This document shows, piece by piece, positions 366 through 48,857 of a DNA stretch of 64,000 nt. Source of the DNA: an uncultured Chloroflexia bacterium. GTDB lineage: Bacteria; Chloroflexota; Limnocylindria; Limnocylindrales; CSP1-4. Each line of letters starts with the position of its first letter. The stretch's first letter is position 1. Position numbers and translations under genes: made by a program. Under the pieces are notes generated by a model. That model worked only from the letters and a program-made list of their open reading frames with translations, was not told the DNA's origin and searched no databases. Location of the stretch: the NCBI GenBank assembly GCA_963828165.1, contig CAWHDR010000001.1, positions 2,144,001-2,208,000 on the forward strand. Direction: 5' to 3'.

Positions 366-448
366 CAGCCCCGAGCCGGCTGCGGCCGCCCCAGCCCCGA
401 GCCGGCTGCGGCCGCCGCAGCCCCGAGCCGTTTGAGGCCGCCGCAGCC
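366..448. repeat. 26-bp tandem repeat, about 3.2 copies
   Basis: CAGCCCCGAGCCGGCTGCGGCCGCC(C/G) at 366, 392 and 418 (third copy degenerate) plus a partial copy at 444. Confidence 0.9.
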
Positions 449-452
449 TAAC

Positions 453-642
453 AACTCCGCCAAATGTGCTTCCACCGGAACGTAAGGCGGTCAGTTAGTG
501 GGCCGGGAGGGTTGCTCGGGGCTGCCCCGACCGGGATCTGAGCGTGACGCGACGCCCATGCAGCTGCGAATCGCGCCTTCGGCGGCCAGGCGAGGCTCAG
601 TTGCCCGCCTAACGTTCCGGTAGCGATACAAATGGCGGAGTT
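453..642. repeat. Intergenic inverted-repeat element, family 1, copy A (REP/MITE-like)
   Basis: Arm 453-490 AACTCCGCCAAATGTGCTTCCACCGGAACGTAAGGCGG; arm 605-642 reverse complement AACTCCGCCATTTGTATCGCTACCGGAACGTTAGGCGG (30/38 identical); homologous element at 11431-11630. Confidence 0.85.
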
Positions 643-717
643 TCGACGCGAGAACGGATCGGTTGCGGCCGCTCCCCCGATAAGCGGCAGTGCAGCGTTC
701 CTGGTCATGATCGGTCG

Positions 718-1443
718 ATGGAGGATCTGCGTCTCGGCTCAGTCGTCCGGACGGCGCGCCTGCGACGCGGCTGGCGCCAGCAGGACCTGGCCGCGAAGGG
801 GCGAGTCTCGCGGGTCACGATCTCGCGGGTCGAGCAAGGGCATGTCGGACCCTTGTCCCTGGACTCGATCCGTGCGATCTGCGGGGCCCTGGACATCCGC
901 CTGGAGCTCCAGCCAAGGTGGCGTGGCGGCGACCTGGATCGGATGATGAGCCGGCGGCACTCGGCCCTGCACGAGTCGGTCACGCGAACGATCGCCGCGG
1001 CATTCCCGGATTGGGAGATCTCGCCGGAGGTCTCGTTCTCCATCTACGGAGAGCGTGGCGTCATCGACCTGTTGCTATGGCATCCCGGCCGCCGAGCCCT
1101 GCTGGTCATCGAGCTCAAGACGGACATCGTCGACGTTGGCGAGATGCTCGGCACGCTCGACAAGAAGCGGCGTCTTGCCTGGGAGATCGCCAAGGAGAAG
1201 GGCTGGTCGCCGCGAACCGTGTCGGCCTGGATCGTGGTTGGCGGATCCCGAACCAACGAGCGGCGAGTCGCTCAATTCCAGGCGATGCTCCGATCGGCGT
1301 ACCCGGCCGACGGCCGCCAGGTGCGGGCGTGGCTGCGGGATCCCGTGGGGTCGATCGCCGCCCTGTCGCTGTGGTCCGCGGCCGCCAGCGGTGCTCGTGA
1401 TGTCGCGCCGCGCCGGCGGGTCCGGACGACGCGGGTCGCGTAG
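718..1443 (+). CDS. XRE-family HTH protein fused to a PD-(D/E)XK (restriction-endonuclease-like) domain
   Basis: N-terminal HTH (VRTARLRRGWRQQDLAAKGRVSRVTISRVEQG); C-terminal E...GVIDLL...LVIELKT nuclease-type motif; CATGAT -10 six nt before the ATG. Confidence 0.8.
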   Translation: MEDLRLGSVVRTARLRRGWRQQDLAAKGRVSRVTISRVEQGHVGPLSLDSIRAICGALDIRLELQPRWRGGDLDRMMSRRHSALHESVTRTIAAAFPDWEISPEVSFSIYGERGVIDLLLWHPGRRALLVIELKTDIVDVGEMLGTLDKKRRLAWEIAKEKGWSPRTVSAWIVVGGSRTNERRVAQFQAMLRSAYPADGRQVRAWLRDPVGSIAALSLWSAAASGARDVAPRRRVRTTRVA

Positions 1444-2006: not shown

Positions 2007-3152
2007 CTAGCTGCGTGATCCAGTCGGGGGCACCGGGACTGCGCGGGCTATAGGCAGGCATTGGAGTGCACGCCGAATGGGTGGGCATGGCGGGGCGGGC
2101 CCGGCCCCGACGAGTCTCGCGAGGCGCTCGAAGGCGGCAACTTTGTCGACGCGCATCCGCTCGATCACGGTTCCCACTGCCGGCGAGTCCCCGTGACGCG
2201 CCCATCGGAGCCGGAGCCGGGTCCCGCCCTCGACCGGGTCGAGGTCCGTGACCGCCTCGATCGGACCGACGTCCGGCACGGCAAGTCGCCACGCGACGCG
2301 TTCATACGGCTGCCAATCGACGATCTCCTCGAGCGTCGCCAGCCGGCCCGTCACGCACTGCGATGTCGTGCCCACGCCACGCCGGCCGCCGACCGCCACG
2401 TCCTCCATCACCAGCGGGCCTTCCCACAACGTCCGCAGCGCCGGGGCCGTGAGATGGGCCCATACGACCGCGGGGTCCGCCGCGATGGTCGCCGCGACAT
2501 CAAGAATGACGTCGGCTGCGATGGGATCGATGCGGCGGACGCCGGTCTCGGCCTGCCAACGAGCCTCCAGGTCGAGCGTGAAGGTCGCGATCCGGCCCAG
2601 ATGCTCGATCGAGAGCTCACCCGCCCGCAAGCCAAGAGCGCCGGGCTCGAGATCAAGGGCCCGGACCGCGTCGTCTGTGAACAGCGCGAAGCCATCGCTC
2701 ACCGTCCCGGCAGTCGTCGCCCCCTTCAACAGACGGTGCACGAGGATGACGTCCGACCCAGCCAGCTCGTCCCGACCGGCGATGCGTCCACGAACGAACG
2801 CGCCGTGGTGCACGAAGAGTTTGAGGTCGAGCCGGGGCGCCAGCCGGCACGAGTTGCAGTCGCAGCTCGTGGCCCCGTCGATGCTCCGCAGCCGACGCCG
2901 GAATGCGACGTAGGCCGCCTCGATCGCGTCGAGGAGCAGCGAGCCGTCGGACCGCCCGTCCTCGACGAAGAGGAATGCCGCATCGCCCTCGAACTTGGCC
3001 AGCCGGAACGGTGGTTCCAGGCGGCCGACGATCGTCTCGAGGAGGTCGCCCGCGATCGCCGGCGCATGCTCGATCTCACTGCCGGTCAGGTACGCCGTGT
3101 ACCCGGTGAGGTCCGCGATGACCAGGAACCCAGACTCGGGTGTCGCTGCCAT
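2007..3152 (-). CDS. DUF2652 (nucleotide-cyclase-like fold) domain fused to an SRPBCC/START domain
   Basis: FLVIADLTGYT, KFEGDAAF, CDCNSC, LKLFVHHG, GSDVILVHRLLK; C-terminal IAADPAVVWAHLT...EEIVDWQP; start placed at the ATG at 3152 just downstream of a MerR-type promoter. Confidence 0.8.
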   Translation of the reverse strand: MAATPESGFLVIADLTGYTAYLTGSEIEHAPAIAGDLLETIVGRLEPPFRLAKFEGDAAFLFVEDGRSDGSLLLDAIEAAYVAFRRRLRSIDGATSCDCNSCRLAPRLDLKLFVHHGAFVRGRIAGRDELAGSDVILVHRLLKGATTAGTVSDGFALFTDDAVRALDLEPGALGLRAGELSIEHLGRIATFTLDLEARWQAETGVRRIDPIAADVILDVAATIAADPAVVWAHLTAPALRTLWEGPLVMEDVAVGGRRGVGTTSQCVTGRLATLEEIVDWQPYERVAWRLAVPDVGPIEAVTDLDPVEGGTRLRLRWARHGDSPAVGTVIERMRVDKVAAFERLARLVGAGPAPPCPPIRRALQCLPIARAVPVPPTGSRS

Positions 3153-3159
3153 GGCGGCA

Positions 3160-3190
3160 ACGCTAGACCCTGGAGCCGCTCCAATGTCAA
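3160..3190 (-). promoter_or_regulatory. MerR-type promoter with 19-bp spacer and dyad operator
   Basis: Minus strand TTGACA-ttggagcggctccagggtc(19 nt)-TAGCGT, 7 nt, ATG; dyad TGGAGC-n-GCTCCA at 3171-3183. Confidence 0.85.
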
Positions 3191-3378
3191 CAGCGAACTG
3201 GCCTGACCCTGTCACACGATGCTTCGAAATCGACGTTTCCCGGTCTGCCGGCAGGCGCCCGAGTGCTCGGTGCTGCGATGACGCCCCGAGTCGCGGCTGT
3301 GTCGTTCGTGGCTGGAACGCAACGACCCGATCGCCTTCGCGAGCGCCGCTGTACGGCCCGGGGACGCAGGCTCCGGTG

Positions 3379-4101
3379 GTGGCGCTGCACGTGGGCACAT
3401 CGGGGTTCGACTACAAGGATTGGCGTGGGTCGTTCTACCCGCGGTTCCTGAAGTCGGGCGACCGATTGGCGTTCTATGCCGAACATTTCGACACCGTCGA
3501 GCTCAACGTCACGTTCTATCGGATGCCGAAGGCGGAGGCGTTCCGGGGCTGGCGGGATGCCGTTCCGGACGACTTCCGATTCGCGGTCAAGGCCAGCCGG
3601 TACCTGACGCACATCAAGCGGCTCGAGGACCCGCAGGGTCCGGTCGAGTTCCTGATGGAGCGTGCCGGCGAGCTCGGCGACAAGCTCGGGGTGGTGCTCC
3701 TGCAGCTGCCGCCCACCCTCGAGATCGACCTGGACCGATTGGACGACACGCTGCGGGCGTTTCGGCGGGCGGTGCCCATCGCGGTCGAGCCGCGCCACCA
3801 GAGCTGGTTCGTGCCGGAGCTGTGCGAGCTGCTCCGCGAGCACGGGGCGGCGTTCGTCCTCGCGGATCGGCGCGGGCCGATCACGCCACTCTGGAGCACG
3901 ACCGACTGGACGTACCTGCGGCTCCACCAGGGGAGAGCCACCCCACGGCCGTGCTACGGGCGGCACGCCCTCGCGAGCTGGGTCGACCGGCTGGCCGCGC
4001 TACCCGGCGGCGACCGCGGGTTCGTCTACTTCAACAACGACCACCGAGCGTGCGCCGTCTACAACGCCCGGACGTTCGAGCGGATCGTCGCCCGGCGCTG
4101 A
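3379..4101 (+). CDS. DUF72 (YecE/UPF0759) family protein
   Basis: HVGTSGFDYKDWRGSFYP, FDTVELNVTFYRMP, FAVKASRYLTH, LLQLPP, YLRLH, VYFNND; GTG start estimated. Confidence 0.92.
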   Translation: MALHVGTSGFDYKDWRGSFYPRFLKSGDRLAFYAEHFDTVELNVTFYRMPKAEAFRGWRDAVPDDFRFAVKASRYLTHIKRLEDPQGPVEFLMERAGELGDKLGVVLLQLPPTLEIDLDRLDDTLRAFRRAVPIAVEPRHQSWFVPELCELLREHGAAFVLADRRGPITPLWSTTDWTYLRLHQGRATPRPCYGRHALASWVDRLAALPGGDRGFVYFNNDHRACAVYNARTFERIVARR

Positions 4102-9723: not shown

Positions 9724-11366
9724 CTGTCGTCGATCCTGGGCCGGGTGATGCTCGCGTTCGAGGGGGAGGTGCTGCCCGGCCCGGATCGCCGAGCGCGCTC
9801 GCGGCGGCGCCGGCGGCGGGGATGACGCTGTTCCGGTATCACAACGTCCGGTCTCCGGGTCAGGTCCTGGAGCTGACCTCCGCTTTCCAGCGAGCGGGCG
9901 CGGCGGACCCCCACGCCGCGCCCGCCGACGTCCCGGGTCCCTCGCCGATGCTCGTCGCGGCCGACCAGGAGGGCGGCCAGTTCATCGGCCTCGGTGACGG
10001 GCTCGACGGCGTTCGCCGGGAACATGGCCCTGGGCGCGGTCGACGATGCGGCGCTCACGGAGCGGGTCGGGCACGCGATCGGTACCGAGGCCCGAGCGAT
10101 GGGCGTCAACGTGGTCTACGCGCCGGTCCTGGATCTCGCCACGGACCCCGCCAACCCGGCGCTCGGGATCCGGTCGTTCGGCGACTCGCCTGAGGCAGTC
10201 GGGCGCGCATGGGGCCGCGATGGTCCGCGGCCTCCAGGCGGCCGGGGTGGCCGCCACGGTCAAGCACGCCCCGGGGATGGGGCACATCTCGAGCGATACG
10301 CACCACGGCCTGGCGGTCGTCTCGGCGGCACGCGTTCCGTGCTGGACGACCGCGAGTTCGTGCCGTTCCGTGCCGCGCTTCGCGGCCGGGGCCCGGCTCG
10401 CGATGTCGGGGCACATGGCGCTGCCGGCCGTGACCGGTCGCGACGACCTGCCCGGGACGCTGTCGCGGGCCGTGATGACCGACCTGCTGCGGCGCGATCT
10501 CGGCTTCGAGGGAGTGACGATCTCCGACGCGCTCGACATGCGGGCACTCGCCCAGGGCCCGGCCCAGGTCGCTCGACGTCATCGCGGCCGTCCGGGCGGG
10601 CGTCGACCTGTTGCTCGCCGTCGGCCGATCCCGAGGCGCTGGCCCGTATCGAGGAGACGCTCGTCCGGGCCGTGGCCCGCGAGCTGCTCGATCCGGCCGA
10701 GGTGGCTGCCACGGAACGTCGTGTGGCCGCGCTCCGGGCGTGGCTCGGCTCGGCCGGGCCGGCACCGGACCTGTCGGTCGTCGGCTGCGCGGAGCACCGC
10801 GGCCCTCGCCGACGGAGCTCGCCGCCCGCTCGATCACGCTCGTCCGCGACCCGGCGCGGGCTCCTGCCGCTGCTCCGCGCGAGTCCGGCCCGATCCTCGC
10901 CGTCATGCCGCGCCCGGCCGACCTCACCCCGGCCGACACCTCCTCGACCGTCGCACCCGTGCTCGCCGCCGCGCTGCGCCGCCATTTCCGGGACGTCGAC
11001 GAGATCGTCGTGGACCAGACCCCGGACCACGGCTCGATCGCCGCCGTGCGCGACCGGGCGGCAGCCGCTCGCGCCGTGGTCATCGGCACGATCGACGGCC
11101 ATCGCCAGCCCTCCCAGATCGACCTGGTCCAGGCGATCGCCTCCACCGGCACGCCGGTCATCGCCGTCGCGCTGCGCGGCCCGTGGGACGTCGCGGCGTA
11201 CCCCGCCAACGTCACGGCCCTCGCGACCTACTCCATCCTGCCCGCGTCGCTCGATGCCCTCGCCGCGGTCCTCGCCGGCCAGGCCGAGGCGCCCGGTCGC
11301 CTGCCCGTCCGCGAGGGGGCGATGACGCCCCGGCCGCCTGCCGGCCAGACCACCCTGGGACGATGA
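9720..11366 (+). CDS. nagZ: GH3 beta-N-acetylhexosaminidase-like glycosidase (multiple frameshifts)
   Basis: AADQEGG, GVNVVYAPVLD, RSFGDSP, KHAPGMGHISSDTHH, GFEGVTISDALDM and a C-terminal GH3 domain, spread over several frames. Confidence 0.8.
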
Positions 11367-11421: not shown

Positions 11422-11430
11422 GCCGAGCCC

Positions 11431-11630
11431 AACTCCGCCAGATGTATCGCCCATGGAACGTACGGCGGGGAATCGATGCTCGATCGGACCTGACCGGGTC
11501 GCATCTTGGCCCGTCGCCAGCGGGACCGTGCACGATCCGAGCGTCGGCAGCCACTCGAGGGTCCTCGGCGGGGTCGCTGCAGGCGGTCGAGTCCGCCTAA
11601 CGTTCCCGCGGAGGCACATCTGGCGGAGTC
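11431..11630. repeat. Intergenic inverted-repeat element, family 1, copy B (inverted relative to copy A)
   Basis: Arm 11431-11468 AACTCCGCCAGATGTATCGCCCATGGAACGTACGGCGG; arm 11593-11630 reverse complement GACTCCGCCAGATGTGCCTCCGCGGGAACGTTAGGCGG. Confidence 0.85.
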
Positions 11631-11700
11631 CTGATCGTCATGGCGGTCGAATGACCGGCGGCGCCCTGCACGGCCCCACGCGGTCTGACACCATCGGGTC

Positions 11701-12738
11701 ATGAGCCTGCGCGACGAGATCCTCGAGCAGCCCGAGGTCGCCGCCCGTTTCCTCCGCCGCGCGCCCGAGGTCGTCGGCCCGCTGGCCGACGCGATCCGCG
11801 CGCGCGACGTCGATCATGTCGTCATCGCCGCCCGCGGTACCAGCGACCACGCGGCGATCTATGCCCAGTACGTGCTCGGTGTCCGCCACGCGCTGTCAGT
11901 CGGGCTGAGTGCGCCGTCGGTGATCTCGTTGTACGGCGCGGAGCCGCGGCTCGATCGGTCGCTCGTCGTGGGCATCAGCCAGTCGGGCGCTTCGCCGGAT
12001 GTCGTCGCGGTCATCGAGGCGGGGCGCCGTCACGGCGCGCCGACGCTGGCCATCACGAACGACCCGGACTCGGCGCTCGCGAACGCCGCGGAGACGACCA
12101 TCGACCTCGGCGCGGGGCCGGAGCTCGCGATCGCCGCGACGAAGACGTACACGACCGAGCTCCTGGCGGTCGCTGCCCTGTCGGCGGCGATGTCGCGCGA
12201 CCCGGCCGACGCGACGGCGCTCGCCGCGATCCCGGATGCCCTCGCCGGCGCCCTCGCCCTCGAACCCGATGTCGAGACGATGGCGGCCGAGCAAGCGGAT
12301 GCCGATCGGCTGCTCGTCCTCGCGCGCGGCTACGAATACGCGACCGCGCGCGAATGGGCCCTCAAACTCAAGGAACTGGCGCGAGTGTTCGCCGACCCGT
12401 ACTCGGCCGCCGACTTCGAGCACGGGCCGCTCGCCCTGCTCGAGCCCGGCGTTCCGGTCCTCGCAACGGTCCGGCCCGGCCCGACGTACACGTCGCTGGT
12501 GGCGTTGCTGCGGCGGCTACGGGCGGATCTCGAGGCCGACCTCGCGATCGTGTCGGACGCCGACGACGCGCTGGCGCTCGCGCGGTGGCCGTTCCGCTTG
12601 CCGTCTGGCACCCCGGAATGGCTCGGGCCGATCGTCTCGATCGTCGTCGGGCAGCTCCACGCGCTCTACCTGACGCGCGCTCGCGGCCACGACCCGGAGG
12701 TGCCGCGCAACCTCAACAAGGTGACCCGGACGCGCTGA
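11701..12738 (+). CDS. Double-SIS-domain protein (GlmS-isomerase-like; probable glucosamine-6-phosphate deaminase)
   Basis: EILEQP, ARGTSDHA, GISQSGASPD, AATKTYT, EWALKLKE, DFEHGP, PRNLNKVT; no glutaminase domain. Confidence 0.88.
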   Translation: MSLRDEILEQPEVAARFLRRAPEVVGPLADAIRARDVDHVVIAARGTSDHAAIYAQYVLGVRHALSVGLSAPSVISLYGAEPRLDRSLVVGISQSGASPDVVAVIEAGRRHGAPTLAITNDPDSALANAAETTIDLGAGPELAIAATKTYTTELLAVAALSAAMSRDPADATALAAIPDALAGALALEPDVETMAAEQADADRLLVLARGYEYATAREWALKLKELARVFADPYSAADFEHGPLALLEPGVPVLATVRPGPTYTSLVALLRRLRADLEADLAIVSDADDALALARWPFRLPSGTPEWLGPIVSIVVGQLHALYLTRARGHDPEVPRNLNKVTRTR

Positions 12739-19608: not shown

Positions 19609-21121
19609 GTGCAGCTTCGTGTCGTCACCGACCAGCCGTGGGACGTCAAAGCCGACGTCCTCGTCATCCCGTATGTGGGCGATCCGACCTTCGAAGGGCC
19701 TTTCGACGAGATCGACCGGCGAACCGGCGGTGAGCTTCGAGCGCTCGCCGGCTTCAAGGAGCTGACCGGCAAGCGTTACGCCACGACGCTGGCGGCGGTC
19801 GGCGAGCTTCCGGCCGGGCGGCTCGTCCTGATCGGGGCCGGGGACACGGCGACGATCGACCGCGAAGTCATCGTCCGAGTGGGAGCCGCGGCGTCACGCC
19901 GCCTGGGTGGTCGCGTCGTCCGCAGCGTGGCCTTCTGGCTGGCCCCACTGTCGGGCCTCGACACGATCGACGGCGACGTCGCGGTCGTGGCGGAGCTGCT
20001 GACGCGCGGCGTGGTCGAGGGTTCGTACGACCCCAAGTCGATCTACCGCGACGACGACGAATTCAAGCCACCGAAGCTCGACGAGCTGATCCTGGTCATG
20101 CCGGACGGTGACGCCGGTGCGATCAAGGCAGCGGCCGAGCGCGGCGTGATCATCGGCGAGGGCGCGAACAACGCGCGGACATTGTCCAATCGTGCCGCGA
20201 ACGACGTGTCGCCAGAGGTCCTGGCCGAGGAGGCGCGCGCGATCGCCGAGCGCAACGACCTGTGGATCGACGTCATCGAGCCCGATCGGGCGACCGAGCT
20301 CGGGATGGGCATGTTCATGGCGGTCGGGCGCGGGAGCGACAACCCGCCGCGGATGATCGTCATGCGGTCCGGCAAGGAGGGGGAGCGCGATTCGCTGGAT
20401 CGCCACGTCGCGATCGTCGGCAAGGGCGTCTGCTTCGATTTCGGGCGGCATCAGCATCAAGCCATCCGACCGGATGGAAGAGATGAAGATGGACAAGACC
20501 GGCGCCTGCACGGTCCTCGCGGTCATGGAAACCGTGGCACGTCTGGCGCCGGGGACTCCATTGCTCGGGCTCGCGCCGGCCGTTGAGAACATGCCAGGGC
20601 CGCACTCCACCCGACCCGGCGACATCGTGACTGCGCTGAACGGCAAGAAGGTCGACATCACGAACACTGACGCCGAGGGCCGGCTCATCCTCGGCGATGC
20701 GCTGACCTACGCGGAACGGTTGGGCGCCACGCATCTCGTCGATGTTGCGACGCTCACCGGCGCCGTCGCGCGAGCCCTCGGATACCTCATCACGGGGGCG
20801 TTCGGTGCCCCGCAGGACTGGTACGACCAGGTCGTGGCCGCGGGCACCCGGGCCGGCGAGCGCTACTGGCAGCTGCCGCTGATCGACGAGTACGTGCCGG
20901 ACATGGACAGCTGGTATGCCGACTTCCAGAACGCCGGGTCGGCCGAGGGTTCGCTCGTGAAGAGCGGTCTCTTCCTGCGCGAGTTCGTCACCAAGCCGTG
21001 GGTCCACCTCGACATCGCCGGGACCGCGTACTACCGCAAGGCCCTGCCGTTCGCGCCACGCGGGTCGACCGGCGTGTCGCACGCCACGCTCGTCGAGCTC
21101 GCCCTGGCCGGTCGGGCCTGA
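19609..21121 (+). CDS. pepA: Leucyl aminopeptidase (M17), frameshift near 20440
   Basis: VGKGVCFD/GGISIK split across the frameshift, MKMDKTG, ENMP, NTDAEGRL, DVATLTGA, WVHLDIAG. Confidence 0.92.
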
Positions 21122-28000: not shown

Positions 28001-28571
28001 CTTCTGGAACAAGACGGACAACAACTTCGGCGTCGGCCTCCCGCGCGAGGACGACAACGGATCGGCGTGGCCGATCATCGGGCCGATCCTGGCCAACGCC
28101 TCGATCGATCCGGCTGCAGGCCGACATCGAGTGGACGAACGAGCGCGTTCAAGGACCTGCTGCGGATCCGCCGTTCCTCGGCGCTCTTCCGGCTCGGTAC
28201 CGCGGAGGCGATCGAGCAGCGGCTGACGTTCGCGAACGCGTGGCCCCGACCAGATCCCAGGGTTGATCGTGATGCGCATCTCGGACAACGTCGGCGCCGA
28301 CCTCGACCGCAACGCCAAGTCGCTGGTGATCATCTTCAACGGCAGCGACACGGGTCAGTCGATCAGCCTGGCCGACACGGTGAAGGGTCAGTTCAAGCTG
28401 CACCAGGTCCAGCAGACCTCGGACGACGACGTCGTCCTGACCTCCAAGTTCAGCCAGAAGACGGGCACGTTCTTCGTGCCCGCGCTCACCACGGCCGTCT
28501 TCGTGGAGCATCAGCCGGGGCCCCCGTCAGGGCAGCTGAACCGTTCGTTCCTGGGTGTCGGTGGGTCGTGA
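22065..28571 (+). CDS. Large secreted amylopullulanase (GH13 alpha-amylase, CBM41-type repeats, pullulanase-type alpha-1,6-glucosidase); many frameshifts after about 25380
   Basis: Signal peptide; two AGS(L/F)QSE.GCPGDW modules; [40 protein letters not shown]; then [48 protein letters not shown] across shifting frames. Confidence 0.88.
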
Positions 28572-28843
28572 CTGCGGCCCACCGCAGCAGACCCCACCTA
28601 ACGTCCCAGTACCGCCCCTGACCTTCGACCCATCCAGTTCGGGAAGCAGGCCGTCTAGACTGGTCGTTGGCGGTTGGGTTGCCCCTCGGGGTATCATCCC
28701 CCGAAGCCGGAACTCTGATCGTCGTCCTGCGGCATGTGCCCGTCAATGGACGTCGGCACCGGCGGGCTAACCGTCGACCGCGCCACGGCCCCAGCCAGGC
28801 GCCGACCAACGGAGTTTGCTCGCACGATGACGCCGCCCAGGTG

Positions 28844-37610: not shown

Positions 37611-37614
<4 letters not shown>
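36448..37614 (-). CDS. NUDIX hydrolase (ADP-ribose pyrophosphatase-like) fused to a membrane YcxB-like domain; probable CTG start
   Basis: HPGAVAIV, LVRQWR, EIPAG, AARRELEEETG, YTAPGFTDE; two TM helices then VVPKRAF; frame open and NudF-like up to the CTG at 37614. Confidence 0.8.
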
Positions 37615-38741
<1,127 letters not shown>

Positions 38742-38880
38742 GGCGCGCAGTCCTCCGTCCCGTCAGCTCATCGCGGGCCCTTGCATCCTGCCGCCGAAGC
38801 GAACGTGGACGGGCCCCGTACGTGGCAGCGCGGGGTCGCCGCATCGTACGGTCCGCGTTCCCCGGGCGCAAGCCTCGGAC

Positions 38881-39288: not shown

Positions 39289-41891
39289 GACGACGCCCGT
39301 GGGCCCGTCGCGATCCGATCGAGCCAGCCCTTCAACGCATCGAGCCCGCTGCCGCCCCGCACGACCACGCCCTGGACCTTGCCGTTGATCCGGGCGCGCT
39401 CGCGGTCGTCGAGGTCGCCGCGGGTCGTCACCCAGATCGGGATGTCGGAGGTTGCGGGATCGGCCTTGAGCCGGGCGACCAGGTCAGGCCCGTCCGTGTC
39501 CGGAAGGATGAGGTCGAGCAGGATGAGATCGGGCCGCTCGTCGCGGGCCCGCTGCATGCCCGTCTCGCCGGAGTCGGCGACCACGACACGGAACCCATCC
39601 GGCTCCAGCTGCGCCCGATAGCTCGCGCCGGCGGCGGGATCGGCATCGATGACGAGGGCGGTCACGACCCGAGTCTGCACCTTCGTCGTGAACGTCAACA
39701 ACCCGAGAGACCCGAGCAGCGCTTCGCGCGAGACCGGCTTGACGAAGTAGTCCACGGCACCGAGCGCGAACCCAAGCGGCGCGTCGTCGACGACGGAGAC
39801 GACGATGACCGGGATGTCGCGGGTCTCCTCGGCGCCCTTGAGTCGCTGGAGGACCTCCCAGCCGTCGAAGTCGGGCAGCAGGATGTCGAGGATGATGGCG
39901 GCGGGTCGCAGCGAGGTCGCCCACTCGACCCCCGTGCGTCCATCCGCGGCGATCGCGAACGCGAAACCGGCCTCCTCGAGATAGACGCGCAGGAGCTCGG
40001 CCGCAGACGGGTCGTCCTCGATGGCGAGGACCAGTCGCTGTCCCGCGAGCACGGGTTCCGCCGAGACGGCAGTCGCCACCACTGGCTCGCGCGACGCCCG
40101 GCCGAGCGGCAGGACCACCGTGAACCGGCTGCCGCGACCCACCTCGGATTCGAGGTCGATGCTGCCGCCGTGGGCCTCCACCAGCTGTCGCGCGAGCGTC
40201 AGGCCCAGCCCCGTGCCCTCGAGCCCGGCCGCCGCCGCGGCCTGCTTGAAGGCCTCGAAGATCGACGCCTGATCGTCCATCGCGATGCCCACCCCGGTGT
40301 CGACGACCTCCAGCCGCGCGGTGCGACCATCGCCCGACAGCAGCACCCGCACCGATCCACCCTCCGGGGTGAACTTGATGGCGTTCGATAACAGGTTGAA
40401 GACCACCTGCCGGATGCGGCCCCGATCTGCCTCTACGTCCTGACGTCCGTCAGCCTCCGCGCCGAGCCGGATGCCTTTTCGATCGGCGAGCGGTTGCATC
40501 TGGTCGATGGTCTGGCGGACCAGCTCTTCCAGGTCGAACACCGTCGGCCGAAGGTCCAGCTTGCCGGCCTCGACCTTCGCGAGGTCGAGCACCTCGTTGA
40601 TGAGCTCGAGCAGGTGAAGACCGGACCCGTGGATGTGGCCGGCGAACTCCTCGACCGTCGCCGCTTCGTGCCCGTCGGGCGAGATCGGCCGCTCCAGGAG
40701 CTCCGAGAAACCGATGATCGAGTTCAGCGGCGTCCGCAGCTCGTGGCTCATGGCGGCCAGGAAATCGCTCTTGGCGGCACTCGCCGACCGTAGCTCGACG
40801 ATGAGCCGCTCGCGATCCGCGAGGACCTCCTCGCGCTCGGCCGCCAGGATCGCCCGGCGCGAGATGAGCTGCAGGACCGCAAGGTCGTCGGCGACGAACA
40901 GCGGGCTGCCCTCGACGTACAGGTCGAGGTCGCCGATGGACCGCCCATCCAGCGACAGGGGCACGCCGATGTGGCGCCAACGACGAGGCAGGTCCTCGGG
41001 CGAGAGCTGGGTGGGGTCGCTCGGGGCGCCCGCGGCGTCCTTGGGCCAGGCCCCGACGGTGATCCGCCTCGCTCGACCGTGGTCGTCGCGGACCGCGACC
41101 GCGGCCGCGCGTGCGCCGATCGAGTCGGCCGAGATCTGGGCGAGGAGCCGCCAGATGTCGTCCGCTGCGCCACTGGTCGGGAGCGCATTCACGCGACGGA
41201 CGAACTCGTAGGCGGTCGATTGCTGGCCAAGCCGATACAGGACCGCCGGCGGCTGGAAGGCGATCAGGTATCCGAAGGCCGCCGTCAGGGCCAGCACGCT
41301 GACCAGGGTGCCCGTCGAGTTGGTCCCCTCCGTGCCCGAGCCGAGCCCGCCCACGATGATCGTCAGCGCGGCGATCCCCAGGAGGGCTGTCGACACCCCC
41401 GCGATCATCAGTCGCGCTCGGGACGCCCCGGCCCGGCGGACGGATTCGTGGAGGAACCCGGCGGCGGCGACCAGCTCCAGGACGACGAAGAACGACAGGG
41501 ACGCCAACAGCACCGCCAGGATCGTCCCGGTGCCCGTCTCGGCGGCGCCCCGCCAGGCGACGACGATCGCGCCCAGTCCGAGCAGGATCGCGAACGCCGT
41601 GCTCGCGCGGATCAGCCAGTCGGGGATGGCCTCGAAGTGGCGCACGAGGTTGAGGGTGAGGACGGGGAGCGCCAGGAATGCCGCGAAGGCGCTGGCCGCC
41701 GTGATCGTCCGGAGCTCGGGCAGCAGCCTGCCGAGACCGGTGACCGCGAAGAGCACGAACACCGCGAAGAAGACCGTGACGACGGCGCGACTCACCGGTT
41801 CGCGACGGCGGCGGTATTCGTTCACGGCGATGACGAGGACGCTCAGGTATGCGACGCCGAGCGCGAGGGTCAGGACGTCTGCGAGGGTCAT
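39285..41891 (-). CDS. Membrane-bound hybrid sensor histidine kinase with two receiver domains
   Basis: Multi-TM N-terminus; AMSHELRTPL, NLLSNAIKFT, DTGVG, GTGLGL; two REC domains. Confidence 0.93.
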   Translation of the reverse strand: MTLADVLTLALGVAYLSVLVIAVNEYRRRREPVSRAVVTVFFAVFVLFAVTGLGRLLPELRTITAASAFAAFLALPVLTLNLVRHFEAIPDWLIRASTAFAILLGLGAIVVAWRGAAETGTGTILAVLLASLSFFVVLELVAAAGFLHESVRRAGASRARLMIAGVSTALLGIAALTIIVGGLGSGTEGTNSTGTLVSVLALTAAFGYLIAFQPPAVLYRLGQQSTAYEFVRRVNALPTSGAADDIWRLLAQISADSIGARAAAVAVRDDHGRARRITVGAWPKDAAGAPSDPTQLSPEDLPRRWRHIGVPLSLDGRSIGDLDLYVEGSPLFVADDLAVLQLISRRAILAAEREEVLADRERLIVELRSASAAKSDFLAAMSHELRTPLNSIIGFSELLERPISPDGHEAATVEEFAGHIHGSGLHLLELINEVLDLAKVEAGKLDLRPTVFDLEELVRQTIDQMQPLADRKGIRLGAEADGRQDVEADRGRIRQVVFNLLSNAIKFTPEGGSVRVLLSGDGRTARLEVVDTGVGIAMDDQASIFEAFKQAAAAAGLEGTGLGLTLARQLVEAHGGSIDLESEVGRGSRFTVVLPLGRASREPVVATAVSAEPVLAGQRLVLAIEDDPSAAELLRVYLEEAGFAFAIAADGRTGVEWATSLRPAAIILDILLPDFDGWEVLQRLKGAEETRDIPVIVVSVVDDAPLGFALGAVDYFVKPVSREALLGSLGLLTFTTKVQTRVVTALVIDADPAAGASYRAQLEPDGFRVVVADSGETGMQRARDERPDLILLDLILPDTDGPDLVARLKADPATSDIPIWVTTRGDLDDRERARINGKVQGVVVRGGSGLDALKGWLDRIATGPRASS

Positions 41892-48057: not shown

Positions 48058-48594
48058 TCAGCCGACCTGCTGGGCCCCCCGGGTCGAGGACGCGTCGATG
48101 GAGACGGTACCGCACGGTTGCAGATCGCCGAGGACGTCATCGATGGTCGCCGCATCGTCGGCGAAGACCACGGCGTTCCAGCGTTGTCCCTGATCGAGGG
48201 CGCCGGCGCTCGGCGCCAGCAGGCCGTCGCATGCACCCGTCCTTCGGACCTGTCCGGCGATCGCCCGCGTCCGATCGCGATCGAGGATCCATTCGTTGTC
48301 GAGCGGCAGGTTCAACGCTTCGCGGACGGCATCGCGGCGCAGGTCCAGCGCTCGCAAGAGCCGGAGTTCCACGCGAAGCAGGTGCGAAGTCTGCTGAAGG
48401 TCGTCCGGGTGGCGGCCTGACTCGATCAACGCGAGGCCGGGGTCGCCGCTCAGGTAGATGGTCGGCTCGCCCTCGCCGTTCCAGCGATTGGGCCGGTCGG
48501 ATCGAAGATCCAAGGCCGACGTGCTGGGCACGTCGTCAGGCCGGCACACCCACGCCATCCGTCGGGCCGGCTCGACGAGTCGCACGAGGTCCAT
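48058..48594 (-). CDS. RES domain protein (NAD+ phosphorylase/ART-like toxin family)
   Basis: NRWN...TIYLS...ALIE, GLLAPSA, NAVVF. Confidence 0.8.
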   Translation of the reverse strand: MDLVRLVEPARRMAWVCRPDDVPSTSALDLRSDRPNRWNGEGEPTIYLSGDPGLALIESGRHPDDLQQTSHLLRVELRLLRALDLRRDAVREALNLPLDNEWILDRDRTRAIAGQVRRTGACDGLLAPSAGALDQGQRWNAVVFADDAATIDDVLGDLQPCGTVSIDASSTRGAQQVG

Positions 48595-48857
48595 GCCGTG
48601 AGACTGCGTCAGCTCCGATATCGCCCGCCCGGTGCGCCCCGAAGGCTTCGGTTGCACGGCTCTTGCAGTCCCTCCAACCCGACCTGACCGCACCGGACGC
48701 ACCCGAACGCCCCACGACCGACCGGTACCGGGGGTGTTGCCCGCTTGGGACCTTCGCGTCGGAGACCCGACCGCACTCCCTGCTTACCGTGAGGACCACA
48801 CCAGAATGCCCGCCGCCGCTCCCGCGGATCGGCCGCATCCGGACTCGAAACGAGCGC

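Follow-up and report, generated by a model that had tools for sequence, protein, structure and literature searches.

What is the inverted-repeat structure that lies in front of a small DNA-binding nuclease gene in an uncultured Chloroflexota bacterium, and do the two belong together? The question is raised by positions 366-1443 of a 64,000-nt stretch of contig CAWHDR010000001.1 (the whole stretch, 64 kb of a 2.9-Mb contig, is called the window below). Here an element of about 190 bp precedes a gene whose product combines an XRE-type helix-turn-helix (HTH) domain with a PD-(D/E)XK-like nuclease domain. The original prediction saw in this pair an analogue of repetitive extragenic palindromic (REP) sequences and their REP-associated tyrosine transposases (RAYTs), with the nuclease as the propagating enzyme. 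We favour, with a probability of about 0.55, the reading in which the structure represents a single copy of a dispersed repeat of intergenic DNA, low in copy number and specific to the lineage of Limnocylindria-type Chloroflexota; such a repeat would resemble REPINs (REP doublets forming hairpins) or miniature inverted-repeat transposable elements (MITEs).

The features on which the analysis turns are the following; E denotes the expectation value and HMM a profile hidden Markov model built from 12 arms.

365-448, no strand: 26-bp tandem array of 3.2 copies (TRF period 26, 93% matches, score 133)
453-493, + strand: left arm of element 1, core motif at 454-490 (inverted pair, exact motif match, arm HMM E 3.3e-11)
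494-601, no strand: spacer of element 1, 108 nt, not conserved (DNA fold z +0.26)
602-642, - strand: right arm of element 1, core motif at 605-641 (inverted pair, exact motif, arm HMM E 4.8e-11)
718-1443, + strand: gene for a 241-aa protein, XRE-type HTH at aa ~5-63 and PD-(D/E)XK-like nuclease domain at aa ~78-220 (Pfam, alignment, AlphaFold2, Foldseek)
11430-11471, + strand: left arm of element 2, motif at 11432-11468 (exact motif, arm HMM E 1.5e-10)
11472-11589, no strand: spacer of element 2, 118 nt (DNA fold z -0.24)
11590-11631, - strand: right arm of element 2, motif at 11593-11629 (exact motif, arm HMM E 7e-12)

A repeat search of the window recovered the predicted element with its imperfect inverted arms, i.e. 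two arms of 41 nt that are 78% complementary and separated by 108 nt, the right one ending 75 nt before the ATG at 718. The tandem array that had been noted on the other side of the element was found both by this search (3 copies at 366-448, 26-nt spacing) and by TRF; it stops 5 nt short of the left arm. Element 1 thus spans 454-641 and element 2 spans 11432-11629, each about 190 bp long with two inverted copies of the motif. The second element had been placed correctly, near 11431-11630, and like the prediction we see no nuclease gene in its vicinity. It is intergenic, between a GH3 open reading frame (ORF) that ends at 11366 and a SIS-domain gene that starts at 11701; the Pfam assignments around it run over two ROK genes, a solute-binding-protein gene and a permease gene to the GH3 and SIS genes. 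A promoter scan gave no promoter-like site in or beside either element.

All four arms share the 37-nt motif ACTCCGCCA-N2-TGT-N9-GGAACGT-N2-GGCGG, which in the form ACTCCGCCANNTGT-N9-GGAACGTNNGGCGG occurs at 454+, 605-, 11432+ and 11593- and nowhere else in the window. Even when up to 3 mismatches were allowed there were exactly 4 matches in the 64 kb, all with 0 mismatches, as compared to 0.00 expected from 100 shuffles. The arm HMM likewise returned just these four arms (E 7e-12 to 1.5e-10), its next match being at 41148 with an E of 0.14. The 14-nt inner block GGAACGTNNGGCGG behaves differently when it is searched by itself with up to 2 mismatches: it has 18 matches in the window against 20.8 expected, and at least 18 were obtained in 77 of 100 shuffles. 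A third, decayed copy had been proposed as a half-arm at 28594-28614. This candidate is one of the 18 chance-level matches of the inner block and is missing from the arm HMM results at E<=10, and it was rejected.

The family was then followed into related genomes by one scan of genome contigs with the exact pattern ACTCCGCCANNTGTN{8,10}GGAACGT, in a collection that does not contain the source genome. Note that such a pattern misses diverged arms (none of the 6 partner or decayed arms matches it) and so samples one or two elements per genome. The scan gave 7 loci. Five of them lie in three Chloroflexota metagenome-assembled genomes (MAGs), namely L001 and L002 in MFD05567.bin.2.62, L004 and L006 in a Candidatus Limnocylindrales MAG, and L007 in MFD06742.bin.2.198. 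The two others, L003 (Prevotella) and L005 (Actinomycetota), had HMM E values of 1.2e-3 and 3e-3; they were dropped as chance matches because just the bases specified in the pattern match, with neither a GGCGG block nor a partner arm. A relaxed search around the five Chloroflexota loci gave these elements:

L002 1844-2029: paired element, inverted partner at the same spacing
L006 681-874: paired element, inverted partner at the same spacing
L007 1844-2030: paired element, inverted partner at the same spacing
L001 1853-2029: paired element whose left arm is decayed, with 6 substitutions
L004 2001-2036: solo arm next to a pair that is weak and decayed (HMM E 8.5e-5 and 1.1)

Together with the window copies the whole elements are 177-198 bp long. 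The neighbouring genes differ at every related site and none is orthologous to those at either window site: they are ArsR/AHSA1 (L001), MerR (L004) and class II aldolase with methyladenine glycosylase (L006), and at the remaining loci an S9 peptidase with an ABC ATPase, and an S8 subtilase. When the window ORFs were compared with the five loci, the sole match was a MalK-like ATPase in L002. In other words, the family is present at unrelated sites in four genomes, and the possibility that the two window copies are the only ones, which would have spoken against the original prediction, is removed by the paired arms in the three MAGs. The copy number looks low, with 1-2 exact arm matches per related genome and a single one in a 2.57-Mb contig. 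Arm-like DNA was found neither on plasmid nor on phage records.

The way in which the arms vary is informative about what is conserved in them. The two arms of one element are 75.4% alike (n=5) and arms taken from different elements 76.9% (n=61); if just the 20 variable columns are counted, the values become 54% and 56%, respectively. Partner arms are therefore no more similar to each other than to the rest, there is no sign of compensatory evolution, and the arms appear to be kept as a sequence motif and not for pairing. The conserved motif would most simply be a protein recognition site. Within each arm a weak dyad can be seen, in which CCGCC pairs with GGCGG or GGCGC in 6 of 6 single-arm folds (4-6 pairs). 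These folds have energies of -4.4 to -7.7 kcal/mol and z values from -1.57 to +0.73, i.e. they are no better than shuffled sequences. On the other hand, the arms of different elements in the same genome are 81.2% alike (n=8) as compared to 74.8% between genomes (n=53), a difference that was reached in 52 of 5000 permutations of the genome labels. A clear case of such a genome-specific variant is the ending GGCGC that is common to all three MFD05567 arms. Genome-specific variants in unlinked copies, together with decayed and solo arms, suggest that the copies have been spreading or homogenising within each genome and that they are not static host sites.

The spacers show a different picture. 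Their lengths fall between 100 and 124 nt, and for 12 of the 15 spacer pairs at least 29 of 200 shuffles reached the observed local alignment score. Three pairs were marginal (4-11 of 200 shuffles), the window pair among them, with a local score of 20 against a shuffle mean of 13.2 that was reached in 5 of 200 shuffles. The fold z values of the spacers of six elements are +0.26, -0.24, +0.70, -0.90, -0.62 and -2.21, so that 5 of 6 fold no better than shuffled sequences. The two whole window elements do fold better than shuffles, with z values of -4.14 and -4.49; since the spacers are unstructured, this folding signal has to come from the arms. Rfam gave no family at the gathering score at either element, and at E<=10 just two matches of chance level (E 0.31 and 8.7). 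A hairpin of RNA or single-stranded DNA under selection was thus rejected, both for the missing compensatory changes and for the unstructured spacers.

The neighbouring gene is of interest in its own right. The reading of its product as an XRE-type HTH joined to a PD-(D/E)XK nuclease is supported because Pfam, the invariant residues, the structural model and the Foldseek matches agree with each other, and this part of the original prediction, which had pointed to an HTH and a D...ELK nuclease motif, was borne out. Pfam HTH_3 matches aa 11-63 with an E of 7.3e-12 and 45.6 bits (cut-off 23), HTH_31 scores 34.9 bits (cut-off 27), and the HTH profile matches together span aa 5-63; profile matches to proteins of the Protein Data Bank (PDB) are C.BclI, SinR and HipB, which cover the HTH only. 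The C-terminal half has no Pfam domain, the best being a sub-threshold match to YhcG_C (PDDEXK) with an E of 0.024. In an alignment of 22 homologs that are 59-85% identical to the query, H81, E104, D117, E132 and K134 are invariant along with 44 other positions, and E86 is nearly so. An AlphaFold2 model made from this alignment has a mean pLDDT of 82.7 and a pTM of 0.61. Its best Foldseek matches in the PDB are PD-(D/E)XK proteins, among them SduA (8ps5, E 5.7e-5), BsoBI, BstEII, PfoI, the R2 retrotransposon endonuclease domain, XisH and a Cas4-family protein; on the N-terminal domain there are matches to XRE regulators. The nuclease matches lie between E 5.7e-5 and 1e-2 at 10-18% identity, and the order of strands and helices in the model agrees with that in SduA, BsoBI, BstEII, XisH and the Cas4-family protein. 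In the reading that we favour, this is probably a nuclease or a regulator that binds specific DNA sequences and has a role of its own.

The ORF, which the prediction took to be leaderless, begins with MEDLR, and the start at 718 agrees with the N-termini of the homologs. No Shine-Dalgarno-like GGAGG is visible just upstream of 718, and a promoter scan of 600-718 found nothing. The family is large and conserved. At E<=1e-3 the 7094 candidates yield 3786 proteins, and the 120 best of these cover at least 85% of the query with an identity of at least 58%; counted as library clusters at 50% identity, there are 2143, 1338 and 389 members at E<=1e-3, 1e-10 and 1e-30, respectively. The only members with an organism name, P0038 and P0180 (42% identical), are both from Candidatus Limnocylindrales. 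Full-length homologs were found on none of 72,556 plasmid and 50,697 phage records; taken with the result for the arms given above, this led us to reject the idea that either the element or the gene came from a plasmid or a phage. The gene has a GC content at third codon positions of 0.85, like its neighbours, and has no paralog in the window, where the next best tblastn match has an E of 0.61. To judge from its composition and distribution, it looks like a native, vertically kept chromosomal gene. Membership in a defence system was also considered and rejected, as PADLOC gives only HTH models and short, weak PDC-S02 matches.

Several further observations concern the surroundings of the gene. 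An imperfect 32-bp tandem array of about 3 copies (1410-1509, 69-71% matches by TRF) overlaps its last codons and stop, so the gene has tandem arrays on both sides; at L004 a 20-bp array of 3 copies (2087-2145) beside the solo arm echoes the 26-bp array, with units that are not obviously alike. On the far side a MerR-family gene (1545-1979, - strand) faces the HTH-nuclease gene in convergent orientation, and after it comes a DUF2652/SRPBCC gene (2007-3398). A MerR gene (L004) and an ArsR-HTH/AHSA1 gene of SRPBCC type (L001) also stand beside elements in the related genomes; they are not detectable orthologs of the window pair. In two homologs, P0080 and P0108, the read-through extensions show a weak likeness to the translated window sequence 177-334 (E 0.03-0.34), which may mean that synteny with the HTH-nuclease gene reaches into this region.

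Is the gene tied to the element? The case for a link comes down to one adjacency, in which the arms stand on a single side of the gene. No nuclease homolog lies within 2 kb of the elements at any of the 5 related loci, where a direct tblastn search had a best E of 1.6. As a proxy for the DNA upstream of other family members, we used homologs whose predicted ORFs read through upstream of the true start. Among 275 family proteins 19 extend at least 25 aa upstream and 15 at least 45 aa, the latter being the reach of an arm placed as in the window. A peptide that an arm could encode was seen in 1 of these 15, the already mentioned P0080, in which IWRS, corresponding to the outer block, stands 23 aa upstream; this is a weak case with no inner block. 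The expectation that homologs are flanked by arms was thus disappointed in 14 of 15 extended homologs, by a proxy that is itself weak, as a stop codon is conserved in one of the arm's reading frames and the extended homologs are only 40-64% identical and their arms may differ. Since few elements are sampled per genome and the power of these tests is low, the link of repeat spread to the nuclease gene is unsupported and not refuted. Of the REP/RAYT-like system that had been proposed, the REPIN-like repeat family stands, and the nuclease as its propagating enzyme does not find support at the related loci or in the extended homologs.

These results can be combined as follows. The unit of the repeat has two inverted end motifs of 36-37 nt, each with the weak dyad CCGCC...GGCGG, around a largely unconstrained spacer of 100-124 nt. 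The end motifs may serve as recognition sites of a DNA enzyme that acts in trans; this transposase or recombinase would be encoded elsewhere than in the window and would have copied the unit to new intergenic sites in each genome. The copies would then drift, and some decay. The copy at 454-641 would have landed in the long 5' intergenic region of a native XRE-HTH/PD-(D/E)XK gene. The mobility, the trans-acting enzyme and the independence of gene and element are the parts that we infer. A number of points weigh against this picture of a dispersed mobile repeat. A target-site duplication was found at none of the 6 elements inspected. No transposase or recombinase family, and hence no mobilising enzyme, was found among the 49 window ORFs scanned with Pfam. 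The copy number can be gauged only by the 2 elements in the 64 kb of the window and by the 1-2 exact arm matches in each related genome. The near-equal spacer lengths might point to a constraint on spacing for which a purely selfish element has no need. Finally, one of the two window copies adjoins the sole nuclease-like gene of the window, which we attribute to chance, at about 0.08 by a rough post hoc estimate.

In a rival explanation nothing moves and the arms are binding sites of the host, either paired operators (possibly with the XRE protein as the regulator) or sites of a nucleoid or topology protein, kept at a distance of about 150 bp so that the DNA can loop or wrap. The motif is indeed conserved as a sequence and not as a hairpin, the length of the spacer is constrained and its sequence is not, the dyad inside the arm suits a dimer, and for three elements a gene begins 60-75 nt past their end (at 718, at 11701 and with the aldolase of L006). 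We nevertheless regard it as unlikely, in view of the non-orthologous positions in each genome, the decayed and solo arms, and the arm variants that are genome-specific across unrelated loci. Moreover, some copies stand just after stop codons (39 nt past the upstream ORF in L001 and 37 nt in L002), and there is no promoter-like site in or next to the window elements. The last two points bear equally on invertons, where the arms would be the sites of one shared invertase that flips the spacer and so switches the expression of a neighbouring gene. It would fit them that the inverted arms share invariant blocks, that the segment enclosed is short (about 110 bp) and variable, and that several copies lie upstream of genes, whereas neither window element has a promoter-like site inside, no recombinase family was found in the Pfam scan of the 49 window ORFs, and some copies appear directly after stop codons, possibly between convergent genes (L002); this explanation seems to us quite improbable. 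A structured RNA, be it a small RNA, an element of a 5' untranslated region or an mRNA-stabilising hairpin, is extremely improbable: the better-than-shuffled folding of whole elements and their position within transcribed intergenic regions speak for it, whereas the folding signal comes from the arms alone (spacer z between -0.9 and +0.7 in 5 of 6), partner arms lack compensatory changes and Rfam has no match. Readings of the arms as attC-like, Tn3-like or parS-like sites were considered as well and set aside.

There remains the explanation closest to the original prediction, in which the XRE-HTH/PD-(D/E)XK protein is a RAYT-like single-copy enzyme whose HTH binds the arms and whose nuclease nicks or cuts them and thus propagates or maintains the elements. 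The closeness of element 1, which ends 75 nt upstream of the gene, the union of a DNA-binding domain with a nuclease core in which D117, E132 and K134 are invariant, and the IWRS peptide of P0080 all agree with it. So does the taxonomy, as the organism-named family members and the arms all come from Limnocylindrales-type Chloroflexota, and genome-specific arm variants would be expected from co-evolution with a resident enzyme. We still consider it very unlikely. The arms are on one side of the gene, and element 2 has no such gene nearby; the absence of homologs within 2 kb at the 5 related loci is a weak test with few elements per genome, as is the lack of an arm peptide in 14 of 15 extended homologs, where distant arms may differ. 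PD-(D/E)XK enzymes act by hydrolysis of DNA and are not known to perform strand transfer by themselves, which also counts against it. There is a slight chance that the protein is a domesticated single-copy analogue of a RAYT on a nuclease fold, with arm variants that co-evolve with the protein of each genome. Such an analogue might work by nicking or by double-strand breaks followed by copying. PD-(D/E)XK homing endonucleases offer a precedent, in that their breaks are followed by copying.

The rest of the window contains a few features that are worth recording. Between 121 and 308 there are five TCCAC[G/A] boxes on the + strand, at 206, 227, 248, 270 and 303, i.e. with spacings of 21, 21, 22 and 33 bp, out of only 35 such boxes on the + strand of the whole 64 kb. 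The cluster adjoins a stretch of 48% GC (121-180) in a window of 70% GC and, by its arrangement, looks like an origin or iteron cluster with DnaA-box-like boxes. Several genes look split or truncated: the N- and C-terminal GH3 domains at 9994-11366 do not share a frame, the ORF of an M17 peptidase lacks a part of the catalytic domain, and the C-terminal domain of a pullulanase forms a separate ORF (19609-20586, 28263-28571). These are either pseudogenes or the result of indel errors in a long-read assembly. At 38739-38835 (- strand) Rfam places a malK-III RNA motif (RF03009, 79.3 bits), directly upstream of a MalK-like ABC ATPase gene (37611-38741), and a RES-domain ORF at 48058-48702 (- strand, E 1.7e-15) is possibly the toxin of a RES-Xre type toxin-antitoxin pair.

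The results add an undescribed intergenic repeat family to the poorly studied, uncultured Limnocylindria-type Chloroflexota, and a large uncharacterised HTH-nuclease family, with 389 clusters at 50% identity and a C-terminal half outside the Pfam domains. If the link between gene and element were true, populations of REPIN-like repeats would have a second route of origin, different in its mechanism. For now the value lies in annotation, as the arm HMM marks the repeats and the genome-specific variants could be used as strain markers. In the literature, judged mostly from titles and abstracts and with the inner arm block also sought on either strand, we found no description of the element or of an HTH/PD-(D/E)XK repeat system.

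How do the element and the gene compare with known systems? The protein resembles PD-(D/E)XK nucleases that carry DNA-binding modules (Shedu SduA, type II restriction enzymes, XisH, the R2 domain) in its predicted fold and its invariant D...E-x-K core. It differs from them in the N-terminal XRE HTH within a 241-aa protein, which makes it a family of its own, the 389 clusters at E<=1e-30. With invertons the element shares a short segment between inverted repeats that have a consensus across several loci per genome, but an internal promoter-like site is lacking and no invertase gene was found in the window. Like MITEs, the elements are small (177-198 bp) and intergenic, do not code for protein and carry inverted repeats of about 37 bp at their ends, and there are decayed copies and solo ends. 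However, none of the 6 copies has a target-site duplication, and the spacers are largely unrelated between copies, whereas MITE copies usually share their interior. As for a parent insertion sequence, none with such ends is known; similar DNA was found neither on plasmids nor on phages, and the inner arm block gave nothing in papers.

The architecture is closest to that of REPINs. In the relevant passages of Bertels and Rainey, these are two inverted REPs around a non-conserved spacer; no two spacers are identical, one class has a spacing of 110 bp, and the doublet including its spacer is organised as a hairpin (PMC3337134). There are several differences. The spacers here form no hairpins and partner arms are no more alike than unrelated arms; REPs are imperfect palindromes that form a hairpin, and our single arms, with their weak dyad, are not demonstrably stable as such. 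No IS200-like Y1/HUH gene was found among the 49 scanned ORFs. REPINs reach tens to hundreds per genome, and the number here is apparently low, as counted with an exact pattern that misses diverged arms. A RAYT gene is flanked by repeats, while here the neighbour is the HTH/PD-(D/E)XK gene with arms on one side only. The likenesses are those of overall design: as in the REPINs of that description, a short conserved unit is inverted around a non-conserved spacer, of 100-124 nt in the window elements and in 3-4 elements of the related MAGs, and the elements are extragenic, have lineage-specific variants and persist within their lineage.

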